A DNA stretch of 64,000 nucleotides from contig OZ024740.1 in assembly GCA_964016885.1 (NCBI GenBank), positions 370,016,001 through 370,080,000 of the forward strand, read 5' to 3'. Below, in pieces: positions 38,948-63,502 of this stretch. How positions within the stretch are numbered: the first letter of the stretch is position 1; each line of letters starts with the position of its first letter. The notes beneath the pieces were generated by a model. The model worked only from the letters and a program-made list of their open reading frames with translations. It searched no databases and had not been told where the DNA came from. The DNA is from Eledone cirrhosa. Taxonomy: Eukaryota. Position numbers and translations under genes: made by a program.

Positions 38948-40920
38948 CACTCCCCCTCTCTATAGCTACCACACAGCTCTCATTATATCATTCTCTATAT
39001 CCATAACCACTAAACTCTTCCTCTCTCTATATCTACCGTACACTCTCTGCCAACACCCCTCTCTATATCTAATACCTTCAAACTTTACCTGTTTCTATAT
39101 CAACCACACCGCACTTTCTCATTAGCACCCTCTCTATATCTAACACCAATTATCTCTCCCCCTCTGTATATCTATTACGACAGTATCATCTCCAGCCCCA
39201 ATCTTTATATCCGTTATCAATAAAGTCACTCGCTCTCTATATCTATAATACTCCTACCTCTGCCAATACCCCCTCTCTATATCTACTACCACCAAACTCT
39301 ACCCTTCTCTATATGCAGGTTGTTCACGAGTGGGAACACCTAGAAATCTTCATATACTAATTACAAACAGTAAAGCGAAAAATCTAGTGTATCTGGAAGA
39401 TTATTTACAGACTTTTTCTGTCGCACACTCACACCATGGTCACGCCTCATACTGTAAATCAAACAAACATCATTTTTCTCTTCTAGCTATATTTTCTGTT
39501 TACCCGGGCAAAGCTGGGTACGTCAGCTAGTATATACACATATCTTCCACACGTCGCTCTCTATATCCATAACCACTAAACTCTCAACCTCTCTATATCT
39601 ATCGTACTACACTCTCTTCCAACACTCCTCTCTATATCTACTATCACCAAATCTCCCCCTATCTATATCTACCTTACAAAACTCTCTCCCAACACTTCCT
39701 CTTTATATCAACAACCTTCAAACTCTAACCCTCTCTAGATCGAACATACGGCACTCTCTCAGTATCCCCCTCTCTATATCTAACACCATTAATCTCTCAC
39801 CCTCCCTATATCTATTACGTCTGTATTCCTCCCAGCAACACTCTCTATATCTATTATCAATAAACTCTTTCCCACTCTATATCTCTCATACTCCTATCTC
39901 ACCAAACAACACTCTATATCTGCAATACACCTGTTTCTAACAACATTCCTCACTATATCTACTACCACCAAACTCTCCCTCTCCCTATATCTACCATACA
40001 GTACTCTCTCATTATATCACACTCAATATCCATAACCATTAAACTCTCTCCCTCTTTATATCTACTGTACAACATTCTCTCCTAACACCCCATTCTATAT
40101 CTACTAACTTCAAGCTCTACGCCTCTCTATATCAACCACATGGCACTCTCACATTATCTCCCAAAACCCCTCTCTATATCTACCGTACAAGCATTTTGCC
40201 CAACACCCCTCACTATATTTACTACCAGAAAAATCCCACCTCTCTATATCAACCACACGACATCCTCTCATTGCATCACTTTCTATTACCATAACCATTA
40301 AATTCTACCCCTCGCTATATCTACCGTACAACACGCACTCTCAACACCCCCTCTCTATATCTACCACACGGTACTTTCTCATCACACTCTAACACCAATA
40401 TCTAATACCAATAATATCTCCCCCTCCATATATCTATTAAACTGTATCTCTACCAGCAACACTCTCTGTATCTATTATCACTAATTCCTCCACCTCTCTC
40501 TATCTCCCACACAGCACTCTCTCATTATCTCTCTATATCCATAACAACTAAACTCTCTCGTCTCTATACCTACCATACATCACTCTCTCCCAACACCCCT
40601 CTTTATATATGCTACTTTCTAACTCTCTCCCTCTCTAAATCTAACAGCAGTAATCACTTTCTCTCTATATATGTAGGTTGTTCACTAGTGGAAACACCTA
40701 GAAATATTCATATACTGTGAACGAACGGTAAAACGAAGAATCTAGTATATCCGATAGATAAGGATTTTTATAAAGATTATTTACTTTTTTGTTGTTATCA
40801 CACAAACACACACACCACGGTCAAGCCACGTACTGAAAACCAAACAAACACCCAACACAGTCATTTTCTCTTCTACCTGTCATCTCTGGTTACCCGGGCT
40901 AAGCTGGGAACGTCAGCTAG
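38833..40920 (+). mobile_element. Helitron-like non-autonomous array: C/T-rich ~30-bp degenerate minisatellite with two 3' end modules
   Basis: Repeated CTCTCTATATCTA units. Duplicated modules 39316-39530 and 40673-40920 end in TACCCGGGC(A/T)AAGCTGGG..CGTCAGCTAG|T. Confidence 0.62.
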
Positions 40921-41463: not shown

Positions 41464-42637
<1,174 letters not shown>

Positions 42638-42922
42638 AAATAACGAAACGAAATTAAATTTCGTTTCGCTTCTAACTCACTTTTGTATGACTGACGCTTA
42701 AACAATTAAGTTAAAGTGTACATCTACATATGTATACGGAAGTACTAGTATGCATATAAATACACACATGTATACATATGTACATGTACCGAGTTTTCAC
42801 TAGACACTTTACAGTGAGTGTCCAGCTAGTCTGTATGTAAACAAACAGACGAACCGGGTTTTAAAGTCATACGAGTTTTCAAGGAAACACACTTCCTCTA
42901 TTCTCCAGAGAGCCAGACAGGA

Positions 42923-42965
42923 ATATTGGACTAGTTTCGATGTTATTACATCTCATCAGCAATAT
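42923..42965 (-). ncRNA. Canonical minimal type I hammerhead ribozyme
   Basis: AUAUUG-CUGAUGA-GAUGU-AAUA-ACAUC-GAAA-CUAG-UC-CAAUAU. Stem I extends over 42901-42993. Confidence 0.92.
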
Positions 42966-43392
42966 ATACCTATCTTCCGGCTTCTCTGGAGAATTGTAAA
43001 AGCATATATCGTTATATGCTTTTTCTATGAAAATCAGTAGTGGGCAGACTAATTTGCATAGAACGTGAGTCATTGTACGCGCCGGTTCAGCGGAAACGAT
43101 AAAAACAAATAACGAAACGAAATTAAATTTCGTTTCGCTTCTAACTCACTTTTGTATGACTGACGCTTAAACAATTAAGTTAAAGTGTACATCTACATAT
43201 GTATGCGGAAGTACTAGTATGCATATAAATACACACATGTATACATATGTACATGTACCGAGTTTTTCACTAGACACTTTACAGTGAGTGTCCAGCTAGT
43301 CTGTATGTAAACAAACAGACGAACCGGGTTTTAAAGTCATACGAGTTTTCAAAGAAACACACTTCCTCTATTCTCCAGAGAGCCAGACAGGA

Positions 43393-43435
43393 ATATTGGA
43401 CTAGTTTCGATGTTATTACATCTCATCAGCAATAT
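43393..43435 (-). ncRNA. Canonical minimal type I hammerhead ribozyme (second unit)
   Basis: Identical core to 42923-42965, 470 nt away. Confidence 0.92.
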
Positions 43436-43649
43436 ATACCTATCTTTCTGCTTCTCTGGAGAATTGTAAAAGCACATATTAATTTCTTGTTAAAGTGTTT
43501 GTTGCATTCTTGGATGATGTACTTTTCTCTTCGTGTATAATGTTTAGGTATTCTAATTTTTCTCTTGGTGTGGTGATCTCAGTTATTTCTTGTATTAGGT
43601 TACGCTTATGTTTTTCTTGATGACTTAATTCTCTGTAAATCTTCTTTTT

Positions 43650-45773
43650 GAAATGTCCCCGGATATATGTGATAGCACGGAGGACCTCCTCACCAGAATC
43701 TGCGAAAATAACCGATCTAGAGACATAACAGACTGTATAATAGGTAGTATGGATGTTGTGTCCCTATACCCATCCATTGACGTGGATTTTGCTGAGAAGA
43801 AATGCGTAGAAATGATCAGTGAGAGCAATGTTGAATTCCGTGTGATTGATACCAGTGAGCTGGGACTCCTACTTAAACTTACTTATAGTAATGATTAGCT
43901 AGATACGTATGACCTTAGCAACCTCTGCCCCACAAGTCCAGCAAGAGGCAGATCACCTACCATTACCTCAATGGTCAAGAAAACCCATACAGAAAGATGG
44001 AACGGGTGGACCAGAGCCAGACAGACGCAAGAAAACCATGATAAACTGAAGAAAATGATTGCACATGCGGTGGGGACCTGTATAAAACTAACCCCTAAGG
44101 AACATATGTTCAAATTTAATTGAATAACATATGCCCAAGAGGAGGGAGCAGCCATTGGTGTTAGGATTGCAGGTGACATAGCTAACCTATTCATGGTATA
44201 GTGGGACAATAAACTTAAAGAACAATTAGAAGACAGCAACCTCTTAACCGTGATAATGTACTCTCGCTACGTTGATGATATAAACATCGTAGTAAAAACA
44301 CCCCCACTAGAGAACAGTCAGAAATTAGAGAAAGACACCATGGAAAGCATCCAGCAAATAGCGAACTCCATCCACCAGAGTATTAGAGTTACTATATAAT
44401 ACCTAAGCAAAGACCCCAACCATCGTTTACCTGTACTAGACACAGAGCTCTGGTTAGAAACCATTAATAACAAAAAAACAAATCCTCCATTCCAATTATG
44501 CCCAACCCATGACTTCTAAATATATGATCCACCGAAACTCAGCGGTTTCGGATCACACCAAAATCAACATACTGATTGCGGATTTAGTACGGGGATGAGA
44601 AACGTGTCCTGCGTGTGCAACCCCAAAGAACTAGAGAGACCCATACAACACTTCATCCACCGTATGCAGTTCTTTGGTTGCAATCAGAGAGATAAAATCA
44701 GAGTATATAGAGGAGCCAGAAACAAATGAGAAAAAATGGAAAATAATGATACAAATGGGACCTGCCCCTTCTATAGGGGCAAATTTTGAAATAGAATAGA
44801 AAGAACTAGGAATAAGGTTAATAGAATAAACTCATGGTATGACAATAATAAATACCAGAGTGTTATGTTCATCAATACAACCCCTAGAGGTGAATTAGCT
44901 TACACATTTAGAAGGGCCCTAGATAAACTTAAACTAAAAGTTAAGATAGTACCTCCATAAAAACACTTTTTAGTAATACATACCGTTTTCAAAGACATCT
45001 CTGTATAGATAAGAAATGCATAATCTGTAAGCTAAGCCCCCATATTAACTGTAAAACTAGAAACATAGTATATATCATAAAATGTCCTGAAGGACAATGT
45101 AAAGATAATACTATAGTGTACATAGGTGAGACAGCTCGTAGTATAGGAGCACGATTAAATGAACACTGGCGAGAGCTTCAAGATAGAAAAGATTCATCAG
45201 TACTCCACCAATATGCTAAAATAGAACATAAGGGCAAATTAGAAAACATAGAAATAACAATAAAATCTACACACAGAAAAGACGCAATGTTTAGACAAAT
45301 CACAGAGGCAATAAACATACATGAACTCCAACCAAAATTAAATAGAAAACATGAATGGAATAGCAACATCACAACGTACAATTAAGTACAAAATGAAAAC
45401 ACACGCACAAAGAACAAACAACCAACCAGTAACATGTAAATAAACAAATAAATAAACAAATAAAAACACACACAGACACCCAGATGTAACACATGCGCAA
45501 ACTAAGCACACAATACACATAAAAAGAAGATGGCGTAGGACAGAACAAAGGAGAGACACAAAACAAAGAGAAGAATCCCCAGTCACTGAAGAGGTCACAG
45601 AATCTGTGACGAAAGAACTTTTACAATATATGAACAACCGTCCGGTTATGGAACCAACCAACCAACCGGAAATTTATAAATTCTTAAATTTATAAATTTA
45701 ATTTATAACAAATTGGAGTGAAACACCTGGTGCGTGTTTCTTATTGGCAACATGACTCTCCCAAAGTATAACA
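43650..45773 (+). mobile_element. Decayed PLE of a third clade (tentatively Nematis-like), RT + GIY-YIG pseudogene 43653-45385
   Basis: GSMDVVSLYPSID, YAQEEGAAIGVRIAGDIANLFM, YSRYVDDIN, LPVLDTELW, NIVYIIKC, YIGETARS...RLNEH...RQITEA..LNRKHEW. HHR-like CTGAAGA-G-GTCACAG-AAT-CTGTGAC-GAAA at 45586-45614. Confidence 0.88.
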
Positions 45774-45796
45774 ATATATATATATGTATATATATA

Positions 45797-48700
45797 CTAA
45801 TAATAATAAATTTGAAGACTAAAATCCAAAGAGGGCTCGATTCCGCGAAAAGCAGACAACAAACAGGATAAATTTGGATTTAAAACCTATAATAACCCCC
45901 CGTGCAACCCACCATTGCTACTCTTCGAAAATGATGTCTTGGAACTCATTCGGAGTATCAAATTTCGGAATAGGAGCAATTCCTTCCAGCAAGACCTGAA
46001 GAATAGAATTCGTTCTATTAAGGATTCTAATGCCGTGCACGTCCATTCCGACAAAACTGGCAACCTATATCAAGTGGAGCGCAGTACTTACCATCAACTA
46101 CTACATAATGCTGTAACTAAGGATTACCGTAAACCTAATAGGAGCGTCAGTAATGAAATCAACGATGCTGGGTTTAAAATCACCTCTGATCTCAACATCC
46201 TGGACCGGACCGAACCTCTGGACCCTATTTCTCCCCACTTTACCCTGAAGGATCACAAATCCAATTTTCCGAACAACCCCTCTATTCGGCTTATTAACCC
46301 TACGAAGTCCGATTTAGGTGACTTAGTAAAACGATTCTTGATAGAATTATACCTGAAATTAGAAGTCTGGCCCCTCTGGCACTGTGGAACAATTCTTTTG
46401 CGGTGATTGATTAGTTCAACGGCATATGTAACCAGGAACATTGCCGTTTTATCCAATTCGACATTTAACAATTACTACTCCTCCATCACTTTACCACTTC
46501 TCCTTGGAGCTATCAATTTCGCTAAAACACTCACAGTGGTTAAGGATTTCGAAGTTGATGTCATCCTCAATGGCTGAAAGTCGGTGATTAATTTTGACGA
46601 CTCTATTTGGATTAAAAAATCCAATAGTACCCCCATTCGACGTGAGTATAGGCGCCAGTGATTCTGCGGAGGTTACTGATCTTATCGGCCTTTTCCTTCT
46701 TTTCTCTATCCGGACGAATTCCCCAACGCGGGCGGTGGTTTGTACCGTGACGATGGTCATTTGACCATGACTAAGTGCGGACCTCGTGCTTGCGACAGGT
46801 TCAGAAAGGAACTCACAGCCTTCATTAAAGGCTTCAACCTCTCTATACAGGTTGAGGCCAATCTCTCGGTCGTTAATTACCTCGACGTTACCCTCAAATT
46901 AATGAATGGGTTGTATTACCCGTATAGAAAGCCGAATGATACGCTTAATTACATAAGTAAGCATTCCAACCATCCTGCCAGCATAACCAAGAACCTGATA
47001 AGAAACGTTTCGTTGAGGCTTTCTCGTCTTTCCACCAACGAGCGTATTTTCAACGACCATTCCACTTATTACAATGAAGCTCTTGCTCGAAGTGGATTTG
47101 TAGATAAGGTAGCATATACAGAGTACGAAAATAGACCTAGAAGAAATAGATCCCGTCGCATTTGTTGGTATAACCCACCATATAATATGGAGGTGGCCAC
47201 ACCATTAGCTAACATCTTTCTTTCCCTTATTACGAAGCATTTTCCCCCTACACATAAGTATAGTAAAATTTTTAATAGAAATACTATTAAAATGTCTTAC
47301 TCTACGACTCCTAACTTTGCACATAACATCACAGCTTCTAATTTAGCTAAACTACCTAGCCGTAGGAACACGTGCAACCCTGTAGTTAGTACTAACTGTA
47401 ATTGTAGGAATCGGGTTGATTGCCCCCTATCCGGGAAATGCCTCTCTAGTAACATTGTCTACAAATATAAGGTTGTAACACCCACGTCCCGTAGGGCCTA
47501 CATAGGGGAAACCGCCAATAGATTCAAGCAGCGTCTTTACATGCATACCCATTATTTTCGTTACCCTCTAAGAAGGAATATGACGTCACTTTCAGCTTAT
47601 ATCTGGAGTCTAAAAGACAACCACACCCAATAAAAGTTACACTGGGAGATCCTAGCTAGGGCTAGATCGTATAACGGAAATAAAAGACCATGTGACCTCT
47701 GCGCCGCTGAGGCCCTGGAAATACTCTACGCCACAGACCACATCTTAAACAAAAAATCTGAGGCAATTTCGGCTTGTAAACATAAATTGCACAAATCTTT
47801 TCTGTATTACAGCCCCACGTTATACCCTAACGGATAGTACGATTTATACGTGGATATTTTACGTCTTGATGTGGGAGCTAAGTATGGTTTGTTTATACCA
47901 TTACTTATTTGCATAGGTAAGTATATTTTACCCGGATGTTTTGTGAAGGTACGTATACCTTCTCGTACGTATATTTGATTGTTTATGTTATGGCGTATAA
48001 TTTTATATATTCTGGTACATATGGATTGGCTATGTGTATACGGGTGTTTTGCGTCTGTGCGAGTATGCAGGTTCGTTGGGTGTGTGTATATGTGTACTTC
48101 ATGTTTTGGTTGACTTACGTCTCCGAACATTCGTGTATTTACATGTAGGTATGTGTGTGCGCTTGTTATATACGTATTTATTTATTTATATACGTTTATA
48201 TAATTATTTATTTATTTGTATACACGCATACACACACATATTTATATGTGCGTGGTTTTGTATACCGATGGTAAGTGTTCTGCGTATGCTTGTGTATGTA
48301 CGTATTTGTTTGCGTGTATGTATTTATTTATTTCTATTACTTCTGTATTGTATTTATTTACTTTGTTCTTAACTCTGTAGCGGAGATTCATTCGGTCTCC
48401 TGGTTAGAATTTTAGTCTACAACTTCTGCTATACCATTTACGTGGTTTTGTCATTGCGTGAAATTGTTATCCACGGTTCACATATGACGTATTATCTTCG
48501 TTTTTTTCGTTCATTGCCAGAGAACGTCTCTATGAACCAGCTAAGAGAACATTAGTCTACGACCTCTTTTATACCATAAACGTGGTTCTGACTTTGCGCG
48601 TAATTGTTTTTCACCGCTCCTTTTAATGACGTATTATATTCGTTTTTTTCCCGTTCTTTGCCAGCGAACGTTCCCACGAACCAAAGTATCGTCTTCCTGT

Positions 48701-48828
48701 CTTCCTCCGGTTGCAACGTTTTTTGAAATATCCACTCCTACGTTTACAGATTGACTTTGTTAGTTTCAGAAGATCACGTTAAGGGTGAAAGCAGTGATTG
48801 TTTGCTTAAACTTTAATCTGTTACTTTA

Positions 48829-48833
<5 letters not shown>
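45797..48833 (+). mobile_element. Naiad-type PLE family 1, 5'-truncated frameshifted copy with inverted tail cap (45797-45840)
   Basis: LKDHKSNFPNNPSIRLINPTKSDLG, YRDDG, VNYLDVTL, WYNPPY, CNC..CPLSGKCL, YIGET, CDLC..E. Stop at 47836, then 3' pLTR. Confidence 0.92.
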
Positions 48834-54643: not shown

Positions 54644-56757
54644 ATGCAGAAATAACATCTGAATATTTCTACAAGGAACATACCCTTACCAAGCAGGAAA
54701 TCTTACCTAAAACACCTGATACAGAAAACAGACGCGTTCATTAAAAGGTTGCGTTGGCGTACCTTTTATTTCGATAATCAGGGAAAAGCAGACAACAAAC
54801 AGGACAAATCAGGGTTTAAAACCTATAATAACCCTCCGAGTAACCCAGCATTGCTACCTTTCGAAAATGATGTCTTGGAACTCATACGGAGTATCAAATT
54901 TCGGAATAGGAGCAATTCCTTCCAGCAGGACCTGAAGAATAGAATTCTTTCTATTAAGGATTCTAACGCCGTGCACTTCCATTCCGACAAAACTGGCAAT
55001 CCATATCAAGTGGACCGCAGTACCTACCATCAACTGCTACATAATGCTGTAACTAAGGATTACCGTAAACCTAATAGGAGCGTCAGTAATGAAATCAACG
55101 ATGCTGGGTTTAAAATCACCTCTGATCTCAACATCCTGGACCGGACAGAAACTCTGGATCCTATTTCTCCCCACATTACCCTGAAGGATCACAAATCCAA
55201 TTTTACGAACAACCCCTCTATTCGGCTTATTAACCCTACGAAGTCCGACTTAGGTAGACTTAGTAAAAGGATTCTTGATAGAATTATATCTGAAATTAGA
55301 AGTTTGGCACCTCTTGCACCGTGGAACAATTCTTTCGCAGTGATTGATTGGTTAAACGGCATACGCAACAAGGAACATTTCCGTTTTATCCAATTCGACA
55401 TCAATAATTACTACTCCTCCATCACTTTACCACTTCTCCTTAGAGCTATCAATTTCGCTAAAACACTCACAGTGGTTAAGGATTTCGAAGTTGATGTCAT
55501 CCTCAATTCCCGTAAGTCGGTGATTAATTTCGACGACTCTATTTGTATAAGAAAATCTAATAGTACCCCATTTGACGTGAGTATGGGCGCCAGCGATTCT
55601 GCGGAGGTTACTGATCTTATCAGCCTTTTCAAGGAAGAATTCCCCAACGTGGGCGGTGGTTTGTACCGTGATGATGGTCTTTTTACCATGACTAAGTGCG
55701 GCCCACGTGCTTGCAACAGGTTCAGAAAAGAACTCACAGCCTTCTTTAAAGGCTTCAACCTCTCCATACAGGTTGAGGCCAACCTCTCGGTCGTTAATTA
55801 CCTCGACGTTACCCTCAATTTATCGAATGGCTTGCATTACCCGTATAGAAAGCCGAATGATACGCTTAATTACATAAGTAAGCAGTCTAACCATGCTGCC
55901 AGCATAACCAAGAACCTGGTAAGAAACGTTTCTTTGAGGCTTTCCCGTCTATCTACTAACGAGCATATTTTCAACGACCATTCCACATATTACAATGAAT
56001 CTCTTGCTCGGAGTGGATTTGTCGATAAGGTAACATATACAGAGTACCAGAATAGACCTAGAAGAAATAGATCCCGACACATTATATGGTATAACCCACC
56101 ATATAATATGGAGGTGGCCATACCATTAGCTAAGATCTTTCTCTCCCTTATTGTGAATCATTTTTCCCCTACACATAAATATAGAAAGATTTTAATAGAA
56201 ATACTATTAACATTTCTTACTCTACGACTCCTAACATTGCACATGACATCACAGCTTCAACTTTATCTGAACTACCTAGCCGTAGGAACACGTGCAACCC
56301 TGTAGTTAGTACTAACTGTAATTGTAGGAATGTGGTTGACTTCCCCCTATCCGGGAAATGCCTCTCTAGTAACATTGTTTACAAATATAAGGTTGTAACA
56401 CCCACGTCCCGTAGGGCCTACATAGGGTAAACCGCCAATAGATTCAAGCAGCGTCTTTACATGTATACCCATTCTTTCCGTGACCCTTTAAGAAGGAATA
56501 TGACGTCACTTTCAGCTTATATCTGGAGTCCAAAAGACAACCACACCCAATATAAGTTACACTGGCAGGTCCTAGCTAGGGCTAGATCGTATAACGGAAA
56601 TAAAAGATCATGTATTCTCTGCGCTGCTGAGGCCCTGGAAATACTCTACGCCAAAGACCACATCTTAGACAAAACATCTGAGGCAATTCCGGCTTGTAAA
56701 CATAAATTGGACAAAACTTTCCTGTATTACAGCCCCACATTATACCCTAACGGATAG
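54644..56757 (+). pseudogene. Naiad RT/GIY-YIG ORF with few disruptions
   Basis: ATG at 54644: MQK*HLNISTRNIPLPSRKSYLKHLIQKTDAFIKRLRWR, in frame with the 518-aa ORF (QFDINNYYSSI, FDVSMGASDSAE, LYRDDG). Frameshift near 56190, stop in the GIY-YIG domain. Confidence 0.9.
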
Positions 56758-58718: not shown

Positions 58719-59890
58719 TCTGTATATATATAAAATTAAGTATGTGTGTGTGTGTCTGTGGGTCTGTGTATTACCTATAGGGGCCTACATCTTACGACAA
58801 ATATTCATGAAAGTTTACAGTATCATAGATTAGTCATTGGTGAGTGTTTTCTATGTATCAACGTATCCGTTTTTTTTACGAGGTCATTCTGCAGATAAAG
58901 ATCGATAGTGGGGTATCGAAAAATAAGATTTTTGGCTCTAGCTCCCACATTTTAAATCAAAATAGAATTTATCATTGCACATCCAGTAATGGCTTTATAT
59001 TTTGCATGTGTTGTTCAGGGACGGCGTGTCAGCCGCTTAAATATTCAAAAATACCACTTTTAGACTCAAATTTCGGCTCTAACTCCCACATTAATCAATC
59101 TACTTTGTTCAAAATTCACACTATGCTAGATCTGATTATGTCACACCTTAAAGTGGCTTTACATTTTGGAATTTTTGTTCAGAAACGGCGTGGCAGCCGC
59201 TTAAATATTCGAAAATACCACCTTTTCGCTCAAATTTCCGCCTTTTCGGTTCTAGCTCCCACATTTTTCAACCGATTTCGTTCAAATTCGAAACTTCGGC
59301 TCCACCTCACATATAAATCAATTTATTTGGTTCAACTTTTATACTACGATAGAACCTATCATTAGCTCCCACATTTTTCAACCGATTTCGTTCAAATTCG
59401 AAACTTCGGCTCCACGGTAACACATAAATCAATTTTGGTTCAACTTTTATACTACGATAGAACCTATCATTAGCTCCCACATTTTTCAACCGATTTCGTT
59501 CAAATTCGAAACTTCGGCTCCACGGTAACACATAAATCAATTTATTTGGTTCAACTTTTATACTACGATAGAACCTATCATTGCACATCTTATAGATGGT
59601 CAGAGGCAAAACGATGGCCACTGGCGTCGTCTGAGCTTTTAGTTGTGTATTTGAGTATTCATTGGTTTCCAATCAAGTAGCGTGTGGAAATTTAGCTTAG
59701 TGTTAGAGGTCATTACCTCCCTTCCCCAGCATGCCCCTTCGTCAGTCACCCGCGTTTCTCACCACCCTCCCCCGAATGGCCTGTGTGTGGCCATAAATGA
59801 GTCATCGAGAAGCAGTCGCTAAAATCAACACCTTTTCATCAAAGCAGATATTAGTTTACCTACCCAGGCAACGGTGGGTGCTGCTGCTTG
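58719..59890 (+). mobile_element. Non-autonomous Helitron-like element with three ~109-bp internal tandem repeats (59253-59582)
   Basis: A|TC start followed by TATATAAAA and a (GT)/GTCT tract. 3' TACCCAGGCAACGGTGGGTG hairpin, then CTTG|T. Confidence 0.65.
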
Positions 59891-60910: not shown

Positions 60911-63502
60911 TGTAGGAGGTGAGTGTTATTCTAGTACAATAAAGCAATGCAGAAATCGGATAAGAAGCACTCTACAGTTTGTAGGACTGGAGTATACATA
61001 ATATATAAGAACAAAAGATGTTTAAAAGAGTTCCATGTATTTTATTATGCGCATTTCAAAAACAAATATCATCATGCAATAATATTTGTGTTTTCATCAG
61101 ATAAAACAGGAATACATGATATGAAGTTTAAAAAACACTTGTGGATAGTGCAGTTTTAAATCAACATATGAGAGGTAGTTTTAGATTGATGTGTGATATT
61201 GGGGAAAATATTTTATTTTGAGGGTGGGGTGTGGAAAGGATGAAAAAGAGGAGGAGATGAGAGTAAAAATTGGAGAGGGAGGAGTATAATGAGGAAGGAT
61301 GAGATACGAGGAGAGATGGGTGATAGAGAGAGAGAGAGATAGCTTTTATAACTGAGAAAGATATATTGTTTTACATAGAGAGGTTGAAAACCGTTGGAAG
61401 ATAATGTATAAATTAAAAGAATTTGAAAATTAACGAAGAGAAAAATAATGTAAAGTTAAGGTTTGTATATTGAGGGGTTTAATAATATGTGCGATGAAAA
61501 GAAAATGTTAATATGTATTAAGAATAATATTTAAGGGTTTAATAACATGTGCGATGGAAAGAAAAAGTTAATATGTATTAAGAATGATATTTAAGGGTTT
61601 AATAATATGTGCGATGGAAAGAAAATGTTAATATGTATTAGGAATGATATTTAAGGGTTTAATAATATGTGCGATGGAAAGAAAATGTTGATATGTATTA
61701 TTAAAAAGAACAACAGGTAATTTAAGTAAGGATATATTGTGAGATGAGAATGAATGAGTTAGATGAAAGGGAGAAAAGAATAATGAATTGAGGATGAACA
61801 ATCTAACGTCAAAAAAATGTTTATGTTTACGAAGGATTTTTACAAGGTGATATAGAGTAAGAATGTATTGTATTATGTAATAATCGATTCTAAGTTAGGC
61901 AACAGTGAGAAAAGGTATAGATTAGGGGTTAGACATTAAAAGAAAAAGAGAAGAAAGGGAAGTGATAAATAGGAGCGATATAGAATGAGTAACAAGTATT
62001 ATAGAATGTATAATAACCTTTGAAATAAGGTAGAAAGATGGGTATATTTTTAAAGATGTGTATATATATATATGTGCCTTTGAGAAAAAGATTCTAAATT
62101 GATAAAGATTTGGATATTAGCTGTATACTTTGTGGAATGTTTTGTGGTATTTATGCAAGCAGATAGAAAACAAGTCAGCGCGTCTATTTATTATAGAATC
62201 TAAATTAGATATAATGGTAAATTTTTCATTTAGACAGAGATTACAAATTTTGGATAGAGAACTGTTCAAGTATGTAGACGCAGAAGAAACCTTCTTCCAA
62301 AAGATGCTATATTTAATATTTTTGTCTTTCAAGGACCATATGAGTTCTGAGAGAGCCGTGTTGGTTCTTTTAAGTTTGTATTTAAAAGACGAATGATGGT
62401 TATAAAGACGAGCTTTAAAAGAGGTGGAAGTGGAGCCAAAATAGGTGAAGGAATTGGTGTCAGTTATAACTTTACATTCGTAAATTAAGTTTTTATCAAG
62501 ACAATGGTTGTTGAGAGGACATTTATTTTTAACAGGGCAATTGCAATTGCGATTAGAGAGATTATTAACGAGTGACCTAGTGTTATCTATAGAAGGAATT
62601 GGATTGGAGAAGTTATTTGCGATAGGAATAATAGTTTCTTGATTTAGAATGGGATTAAGAACATTTAGCGAAGTTGTGTTTGACGTTGTATTTGGGTTTG
62701 CAAAAATTAGCCTAGGGTTTACAATCACGTCGGGAGTACTATTACTATTATTATGATATTCAGTGTTGGAAGGAAGAGATTTAGTATTTAGTATTTTATT
62801 GTTGTGTTTAGAGATCATGTTGGAAATGTTGGAGGATGTAGAATAGGAAAATTTTATAGTGTGTTTGTTAAATATTTTACTATAGATTTGTGAGGGAGGG
62901 AAGCATTTATTTAAGGCACTAAAGGATAATTTAGGAATATTGTTATTAATAGAGATGGAGAAAGGAGCATTATACCAGATTATGTTTTTGTATCTAGGTC
63001 TTTTATTAAAGTTATTGGAATGATCATGATTAATTATTCTACTGTAAGTTCTTTTAGAATTTGTTTCTTTACTATATTTGATTTTATCAGGATAGCCGGC
63101 TTTAGAAAGCGCGTTATTATAGTAATTGGTGTTAGAATCAAAGATGTTTTTATTAGAAGATAGGTTAGATATTCTTTTTCCAATATTACAAACTATAGCA
63201 TTCTTGATATTAGTAGGATGATTAGATTTAAAGTTAACATAACTTAGGTTCTCATTGTTTTTATCGTAAGGGTAATATAGGCCAGTGTCAAGATTAAGAG
63301 ATACATCCAAGAAATTAGCTAGTTTGATGCTGTTATAAAATTCAATTTTTAGGTTATGTTGGTTAAAGAGATTACGCATATTGTTCTTAATAATATTAAG
63401 GTTAACTATGTTGCAATTTAAGATAGTAAAGAGTCCATCGTCACGATAAATTCCACCGCGAAGTTGAGGAAAATTCCTCAACTTCGCGGTGGAATTTATC
63501 GT
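60911..63502 (-). mobile_element. Naiad-type PLE family 2, 5'-truncated, with 1.2-kb 3' UTR, intact HHR (61038-61107) and 60-bp tandem repeats (61474-61700)
   Basis: Open RT-thumb/GIY-YIG frame. 28-bp fold-back at the truncation point (63443-63502). Confidence 0.92.
62117..63470 (-). CDS. Partial Naiad RT (from YRDD) + GIY-YIG endonuclease
   Basis: GIYRDDGLF, NFLDVSLNL, SNHP, IIWYNAPFS, CNC..CPLNNHCL, YFGST..FKARLYNH, CNLCLNEK. The first ~125 aa of the ORF-track entry are microsatellite/other repeat. Confidence 0.88.

Follow-up and report, generated by a model that had tools for sequence, protein, structure and literature searches.

An ORF-less hammerhead retrozyme family of Eledone cirrhosa with an integration signature of Penelope-like elements

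The window analyzed here, a 64,000-nt stretch of the Eledone cirrhosa genome (contig OZ024740.1, positions 370,016,001 to 370,080,000), carries at 42634-43478 an insertion made of 1.8 units of an ORF-less 470-nt monomer. The sequence features of the family to which it belongs support its assignment to the metazoan non-LTR retrozymes, an already known class, and it is very likely a non-autonomous member of that class, moved in trans by an (AT)n-targeting Penelope-like element (PLE) protein with RT and GIY-YIG activities. The features newly added are (i) a PLE integration signature, (ii) insertions that are nearly always of a single haplotype, and (iii) a recurrent C/U flip at the nucleotide where the hammerhead cuts. 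A tentative reading, well short of an even chance, is that the family forms a natural record of transposition in which the C/U flip is the germ-cell footprint of hammerhead cutting during PLE copying. If true, it would provide DNA-borne evidence of a hammerhead acting in a transposition cycle and a way to decide between a circular template and a template jump. The features of the insertion and its surroundings are as follows.

42567-42633, no strand assigned: target site, an (AT)n tract that abuts the long 3′ end
42634-43478, minus strand: entire retrozyme insertion, one-armed (monomer positions 390-470, 1-470, and 1-about 297)
42929-43398, minus strand: 470-nt monomer between the two cuts (GC content 36%; predicted circular fold at -156 kcal/mol, z -11)
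43364-43464, minus strand: first type I hammerhead, stem I extended (core spanning 43429-43399; GUC triplet, cleavage site after 43399)
42894-42994, minus strand: second type I hammerhead, stem I extended (core spanning 42959-42929; GUC triplet, cleavage site after 42929)
42634-42705, minus strand: tail of ~70 nt, from the short end (monomer 226-231) to the long end (297-300)
42645-42667, minus strand: 10-bp hairpin in the tail (internal copy at 43114-43136)
43479-45772, plus strand: neighbor outside the element, an older decayed Neptune-type PLE
43479-43647: inverted N-terminal piece of the neighboring PLE
43648-45382: RT (YVDD) and GIY-YIG of the neighboring PLE (GIY-YIG E 4.9e-5)
from 45586: minimal hammerhead of the neighboring PLE itself, which ends in (AT)n

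A sequence-only reading of the window had described two near-identical direct repeats with minus-strand type I hammerheads, and the description holds: 42630-43009 and 43099-43479 are 98.2% identical over 381 nt with a period of 470, and the hammerhead cores (CUGAUGA … GUC) are identical in both units, with a 5-bp stem II and a long stem I composed of 6 bp, an internal loop, and a long extension. The cuts predicted at 43399/43398 and 42929/42928, with a 470-nt monomer between them, were reproduced to the position; the monomer 5′ sequence after the predicted cut is CAAUAUUCC. Coding capacity is lacking, as had been stated, the longest ATG ORF in a monomer dimer being 64 aa in sense and 22 aa in antisense. 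The predicted circular monomer folds at -156 kcal/mol, versus -95.6 ± 5.4 for 60 shuffles, and the 119-nt hammerhead region has a folding z of -5.6. A complete type I core is present in every unit. The type I topology and tandem units differ from plant LTR retrozymes, which carry a type III hammerhead in their LTRs, and the element has no RT and GIY-YIG ORF between pseudo-LTRs of the kind that marks autonomous EN+ PLEs.

The same reading called the hammerheads perfect, which applies to the complete and identical cores but not to the fold of the single motif. There, stem III consists of a single A-U pair beneath a CUAG loop; the active fold lies 2.2 kcal/mol above the MFE fold, with a P(G2.1-C1.1) of 0.22. 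The ACUAGU palindrome forms a 6-bp helix between two copies. Because stem III has one pair and the active fold lies above the MFE, the hammerhead probably needs a dimer for activity; the axolotl HHR_Amex1/newt design, likewise with a one-pair stem III, cuts well only as a dimer (PMC7229834; this and the other sources cited are drawn on in excerpt). An Rfam scan gave a divided outcome, with 0 matches at the gathering score and, below it, matches of Hammerhead_HH9 to both motifs (E 4.9e-6 and 8.1e-6). Rfam miRNA matches on an AT-rich hairpin also fall below the gathering score and were taken as chance.

In the genome, the 31-nt GUC core has 1,463 exact occurrences, against 0 for the control. A further 74 junctions were found by a pattern excluding the first stem II, mostly in a second subfamily in which one stem II pair is compensated. 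Junctions that carry a base other than C at the cut amount to 5,088 for one stem type and 989 for the other, for a genomic total of about 7,600 ribozyme junctions. Exact joints of the long end to (AT)n number 2,193, which corresponds to at least 2,193 insertion ends. Units are 470 or 467 nt long with 36% GC, and arrays extend to >47 kb. Copies that are 98-100% identical lie on many contigs, which attests to dispersal and recent mobility. The earlier proposal of a young family is supported, its copies being dispersed and numbering in the thousands. The window's duplication is one of many and did not arise from misassembly. Subfamilies form a nested set of diagnostic changes; between them, two two-sided pair changes occur in stem II and in the stem I extension, with 96.8% of cells paired, a covariation of 2 pairs among close relatives. 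Two isolated hammerhead-like cores that end in ACUAGUC, as the retrozyme core does (L163 near 1501 and L189 near 4547) proved unrelated to the monomer and without a PLE ORF.

The loci sampled derive from the first 100 matches of the 1,463 exact cores, which form 35 clusters; 33 were analyzed, the other two being a duplicate and an array of >47 kb. That array (C1 from 95.621 Mb) shows a weak 7-unit higher-order period and starts at a normal short end in (AT)n. Core conservation is inflated by selection of loci on the exact core and was left unused as evidence. The genomic search for tandem ORF-less copies suggested by the sequence-only reading was successful, with monomer sequence alone making up 33/33 position-ordered loci. 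Attachment to an RT ORF, which that reading had weighed against its own proposal, was found at 0/33 loci with probes for the window's two PLE types and an ORF-length scan. Among the 59 long ends on C1 14-82 Mb, 26 have no known motif nearby, and 6/6 sampled ends without a known neighbor motif are again ORF-less monomer.

These data bear on the idea that the repeats are ordinary pseudo-LTRs of an adjacent or other ORF-bearing PLE, an explanation largely refuted for the sampled loci and very improbable overall, although a rare ORF-bearing parent element is possible. It draws on the PLE RT/GIY-YIG remnant that adjoins the 5′ end in the window and on PLE-like protein matches in 19/66 flanks, upstream in 3/11 one-armed loci at a distance of at least 856 nt. 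Yet the closest such match is 428 nt away, the upstream cases lie behind AT tracts, 5′ joints occur at scattered monomer positions, and the 6 sampled ends lacking a known neighbor motif lead back to the monomer. The neighboring PLE of the window lies on the opposite strand and has its own unrelated hammerhead; its only matches to the monomer are AT-rich and of low complexity. Between this PLE copy and its peers, 3.2-4.5% of 2,113 columns differ, versus ~6 of 845 nt (about 0.7%) between the retrozyme insertion and its own subfamily, and the joint between PLE and retrozyme has 1 nt of microhomology. The PLE being older and the joint having this microhomology, the retrozyme landed later and is not the pseudo-LTR of the PLE; co-insertion of the two in one chimeric two-armed event is ruled out on the same grounds. 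The designation of this neighbor as Neptune-type is a call based on its CxxC linker and (TA)n target (PMC8557442). Its family has 35,729 first-look candidates in the genome, and the window copy has two alternative ends into (AT)n.

Mobilization of the retrozyme in trans by a PLE enzyme is a strong inference from how its insertions begin and end. Of 55 arms, 28 end at the long end (monomer 297-300), 25 at the short end (226-232), and 2 elsewhere, and 47/55 join alternating AT. Two head-to-head arms are found at 22/33 loci, where long and short ends are combined in 19/22 cases, long and another end in 2, and two short ends in 1 (p 2e-5). Subfamily B uses the same two 3′ ends. The insertions hence share with PLE-mobilized elements two fixed internal 3′ ends (about 70 nt apart, with a 70-74 nt tail), an inverted truncated arm, and an AT-rich target. 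In the window, the 3′ end enters (AT)n at 42634; neither this joint nor the decayed PLE at 43479-45772 featured in the sequence-only reading. The two tail ends (monomer 226-231 and 297-300) presumably mark RT start sites. The 5′ ends are scattered over the monomer, and a pile-up at the cut was not seen (2/56 only); because they are spread in this way, there is no direct truncation mark of cleavage.

Two ORF-bearing Neptune-type families of the same genome also have two ends joined to (AT)n, ~58 nt apart, and comparison of their ~58-nt tails with the monomer found no homology, the sequences being unrelated. One of the two, a young Neptune-type PLE (L193 2766-5438/L103 1-2970), has an 891-aa stop-free frame and 3′ ends that are 98-100% identical elsewhere, and is a candidate partner. 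At three loci (L102, L012, and L113), the 5′ joints contain short inverted copies of neighboring target DNA; the L102 joint had been considered an RNA template switch to a young Neptune-type family, but an inverted copy of the adjacent target DNA explains it better.

The signature has close counterparts in EN+ PLEs. Partial tandems in which one arm is inverted and truncated and only one end carries a tail are known products of PLEs (PMC8557442), and the tail of an Anolis PLE lies between two internal RT start sites that are primed from AT-rich DNA on both strands (PMC11167929). The retrozyme resembles Neptune/Naiad (PMC8557442) and Anolis Poseidon PAc (PMC11167929) in its partial tandems, inverted 5′-truncated arm, one-end tail, (TA)n/AT-rich targets, and two internal RT starts downstream of the hammerhead. 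Unlike EN+ PLEs as portrayed in those excerpts, it has no ORF, many-unit arms, a canonical rather than minimal hammerhead, and a tail of 70-74 nt versus 30-40 nt (PMC8557442; PMC11167929).

Taken as a retrozyme served by a PLE protein, the family may propagate as follows. Tandem loci would be transcribed, and paired hammerheads, dimerized via the ACUAGU palindrome, would excise 470-nt monomers, which a host ligase probably circularizes, as judged from the retrozymes of coral, mussel, and axolotl. The PLE protein would cut an (AT)n tract and prime reverse transcription within the monomer at two fixed sites flanking the hairpin tail, one per DNA end; the priming step is proposed by analogy with the Anolis PLE, whereas the ends themselves are observed. 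Repeated passage of the RT across the cut junction would yield arms of one haplotype that meet head to head, and arms of this description, 0.1 to >15 units long, are observed. Expansion of some arrays into satellites at the DNA level, which is likewise observed, comes later.

The triplet at the cut is GUU at about 80% of ~7,600 junctions, with the window copy in the GUC minority, and the cut nucleotide is a purine in only 11 of about 7,600 matches. On a tree built without the cut nucleotide, non-C states need 11 changes for 14 rows, and C and U both occur on identical flanks. Among 265 columns, in a table that omits 13/164 rows running out of the element or with long deletions, the cut nucleotide tops homoplasy with 9 steps versus a mean of 1.1; two other columns reach 8 steps, so it is top-ranked and not an outlier. 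It is mixed within 6/45 multi-junction loci, and excluding the chimeric L108 leaves 5/44 loci versus 3/220 at control C columns (p 0.004, Fisher test), a comparison in which most loci were picked for C at the cut and for which the cut-flip idea was formed post hoc. Array length does not differ significantly between GUU and GUC loci (p 0.68; 24 vs 34 loci). The NUH rule is satisfied by both C and U (PMC3884650). With GUU, the palindrome grows to 8 nt, and A14 could pair with U17. GUU hammerheads cut more slowly than GUC hammerheads, and the signal could possibly stem from drift at an unpaired base together with selection for slower cutting. It is more readily explained by an error-prone ligated joint or by a one-base template jump than by uncut multimers, and the C/U flips suggest in vivo cutting of the template, which would then be re-read either as a circle or by jumps from end to end.

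Units and arms within one locus are nearly always of a single haplotype. The exception is L108 (3144-5883), a single insertion in which one retrozyme subfamily gives way to another at the tail hairpin. Locus-private substitutions at sites covered at least twice number 135, in a count that omits 8/56 stretches (a long array and divergent subfamilies); 9 are in every copy, 6/9 of them across both arms, and 113/135 are in one copy only, as expected of later mutation. Variants fixed in all units and both arms imply that insertions pass, at least sometimes, through a one-monomer bottleneck and hence through a circle or a jump. Hardly any variation is seen across a two-armed array of 12 junctions; unit-specific variants of the single same-haplotype long array examined are absent from a young 12-junction array. 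Some arrays have variant patterns of period 2, 3, or 7, with a best lag of 7 in the largest, which require later DNA-level duplication. Some retrozyme arrays thus later expand as DNA into satellites, and the family shows a route from a single insertion to a satellite array.

The preferred template is a circular monomer that is re-read repeatedly, a reading to which we give close to an even chance. The close alternative, somewhat less probable, is that the template is instead the cut linear monomer, with the RT adding one untemplated purine at the 5′ end and jumping to the 3′ end of that monomer or of a sister copy. RTs add untemplated purines, and an A or G opposite the terminal base would fix U or C, any circles being by-products. 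Jumping of this kind would account for a cut position that holds C or U and hardly ever a purine, for recurrent switching on otherwise identical flanks with mixing inside one insertion, and for the joining of two subfamilies in L108; it is less easily reconciled with runs of 12-17 junctions that retain C unchanged, with variant tables without any junction indel, and with the spread of 5′ ends away from the cut.

Rather improbable is a template of uncut multimeric transcripts from homogeneous donor arrays, whose ribozyme would be slow or dispensable, with GUU favored by cutting less and homogeneity arising from young donors and DNA-level turnover. The GUU majority, the 8-nt palindrome with its possible A14-U17 pair, the predicted weakness of the monomer hammerhead fold, and the presence of long donor arrays agree with this, as does the finding that catalytic mutants leave insertion of the Anolis PLE unaffected (PMC11167929). 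The use of uncut RNA by that PLE in vitro (PMC11167929) and the failure of 8/9 Xenopus retrozyme dimers to cleave (10.64898/2026.07.22.740005) likewise count against cutting being important in vivo. Against uncut multimers stand the covarying ribozyme stems, the young 12-junction array that does not share unit-specific variants with the long array, and the variants common to all units and both arms, which require the one-monomer bottleneck.

The retrozyme class, its RNA circles, and a proposed PLE partner have been published (PMC7229834; PMC7761336; 10.64898/2026.07.22.740005). The closest system is that of the metazoan non-LTR retrozymes (Cervera and de la Pena 2020, PMC7229834), especially the axolotl HHR_Amex1/newt satellite 2 type. 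As described in the excerpted text of that paper, those retrozymes share with the present family an ORF-less tandem monomer, a GC content <45%, a canonical type I hammerhead, a one-pair stem III under a palindromic tetraloop, a highly paired predicted circle, dimers to long multimers, and PLEs in the same genome. Unlike those retrozymes (about 170-400 nt), the present monomer has 470 nt, which lies within the 51-972 nt range of a 2026 preprint (10.64898/2026.07.22.740005). The GUU majority also sets the family apart, and the excerpt of PMC7229834 describes neither fixed internal ends into (AT)n nor head-to-head arms. A literature search covering main texts and few subscription journals found no report on animal retrozymes that deals with fixed insertion ends, paired arms, or switching of the junction base.

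Both the mover enzyme and the circle as template have so far been argued in animals from co-occurrence and homology. A 2020 review states, in the portion drawn on, that retrozyme repeats show no motif indicating a partner (PMC7761336). According to the preprint, PLEs give rise to and mobilize retrozymes (10.64898/2026.07.22.740005); its basis, in the excerpt, is co-occurrence and pLTR homology in Xenopus, whereas the basis here is an integration signature, and unlike for the Xenopus retrozymes, no pLTR homolog was found in the two Neptune-type families compared. With exact start sites, a target, and a junction signal in hand, the question becomes testable with one protein and one 470-nt RNA.

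Elsewhere in the window, a second decayed PLE of another type spans 45790-48830, with a partial copy at 54771-55536; it has a YRDD motif, a C-terminal GIY-YIG-like region, and, by eye, a hammerhead-like motif near 48770. Three further repeats are a degenerate 71-nt pyrimidine-rich minisatellite at 38950-40650, a 108-nt unit present three times at 59253-59582, and a 60-nt unit present four times at 61467-61700.
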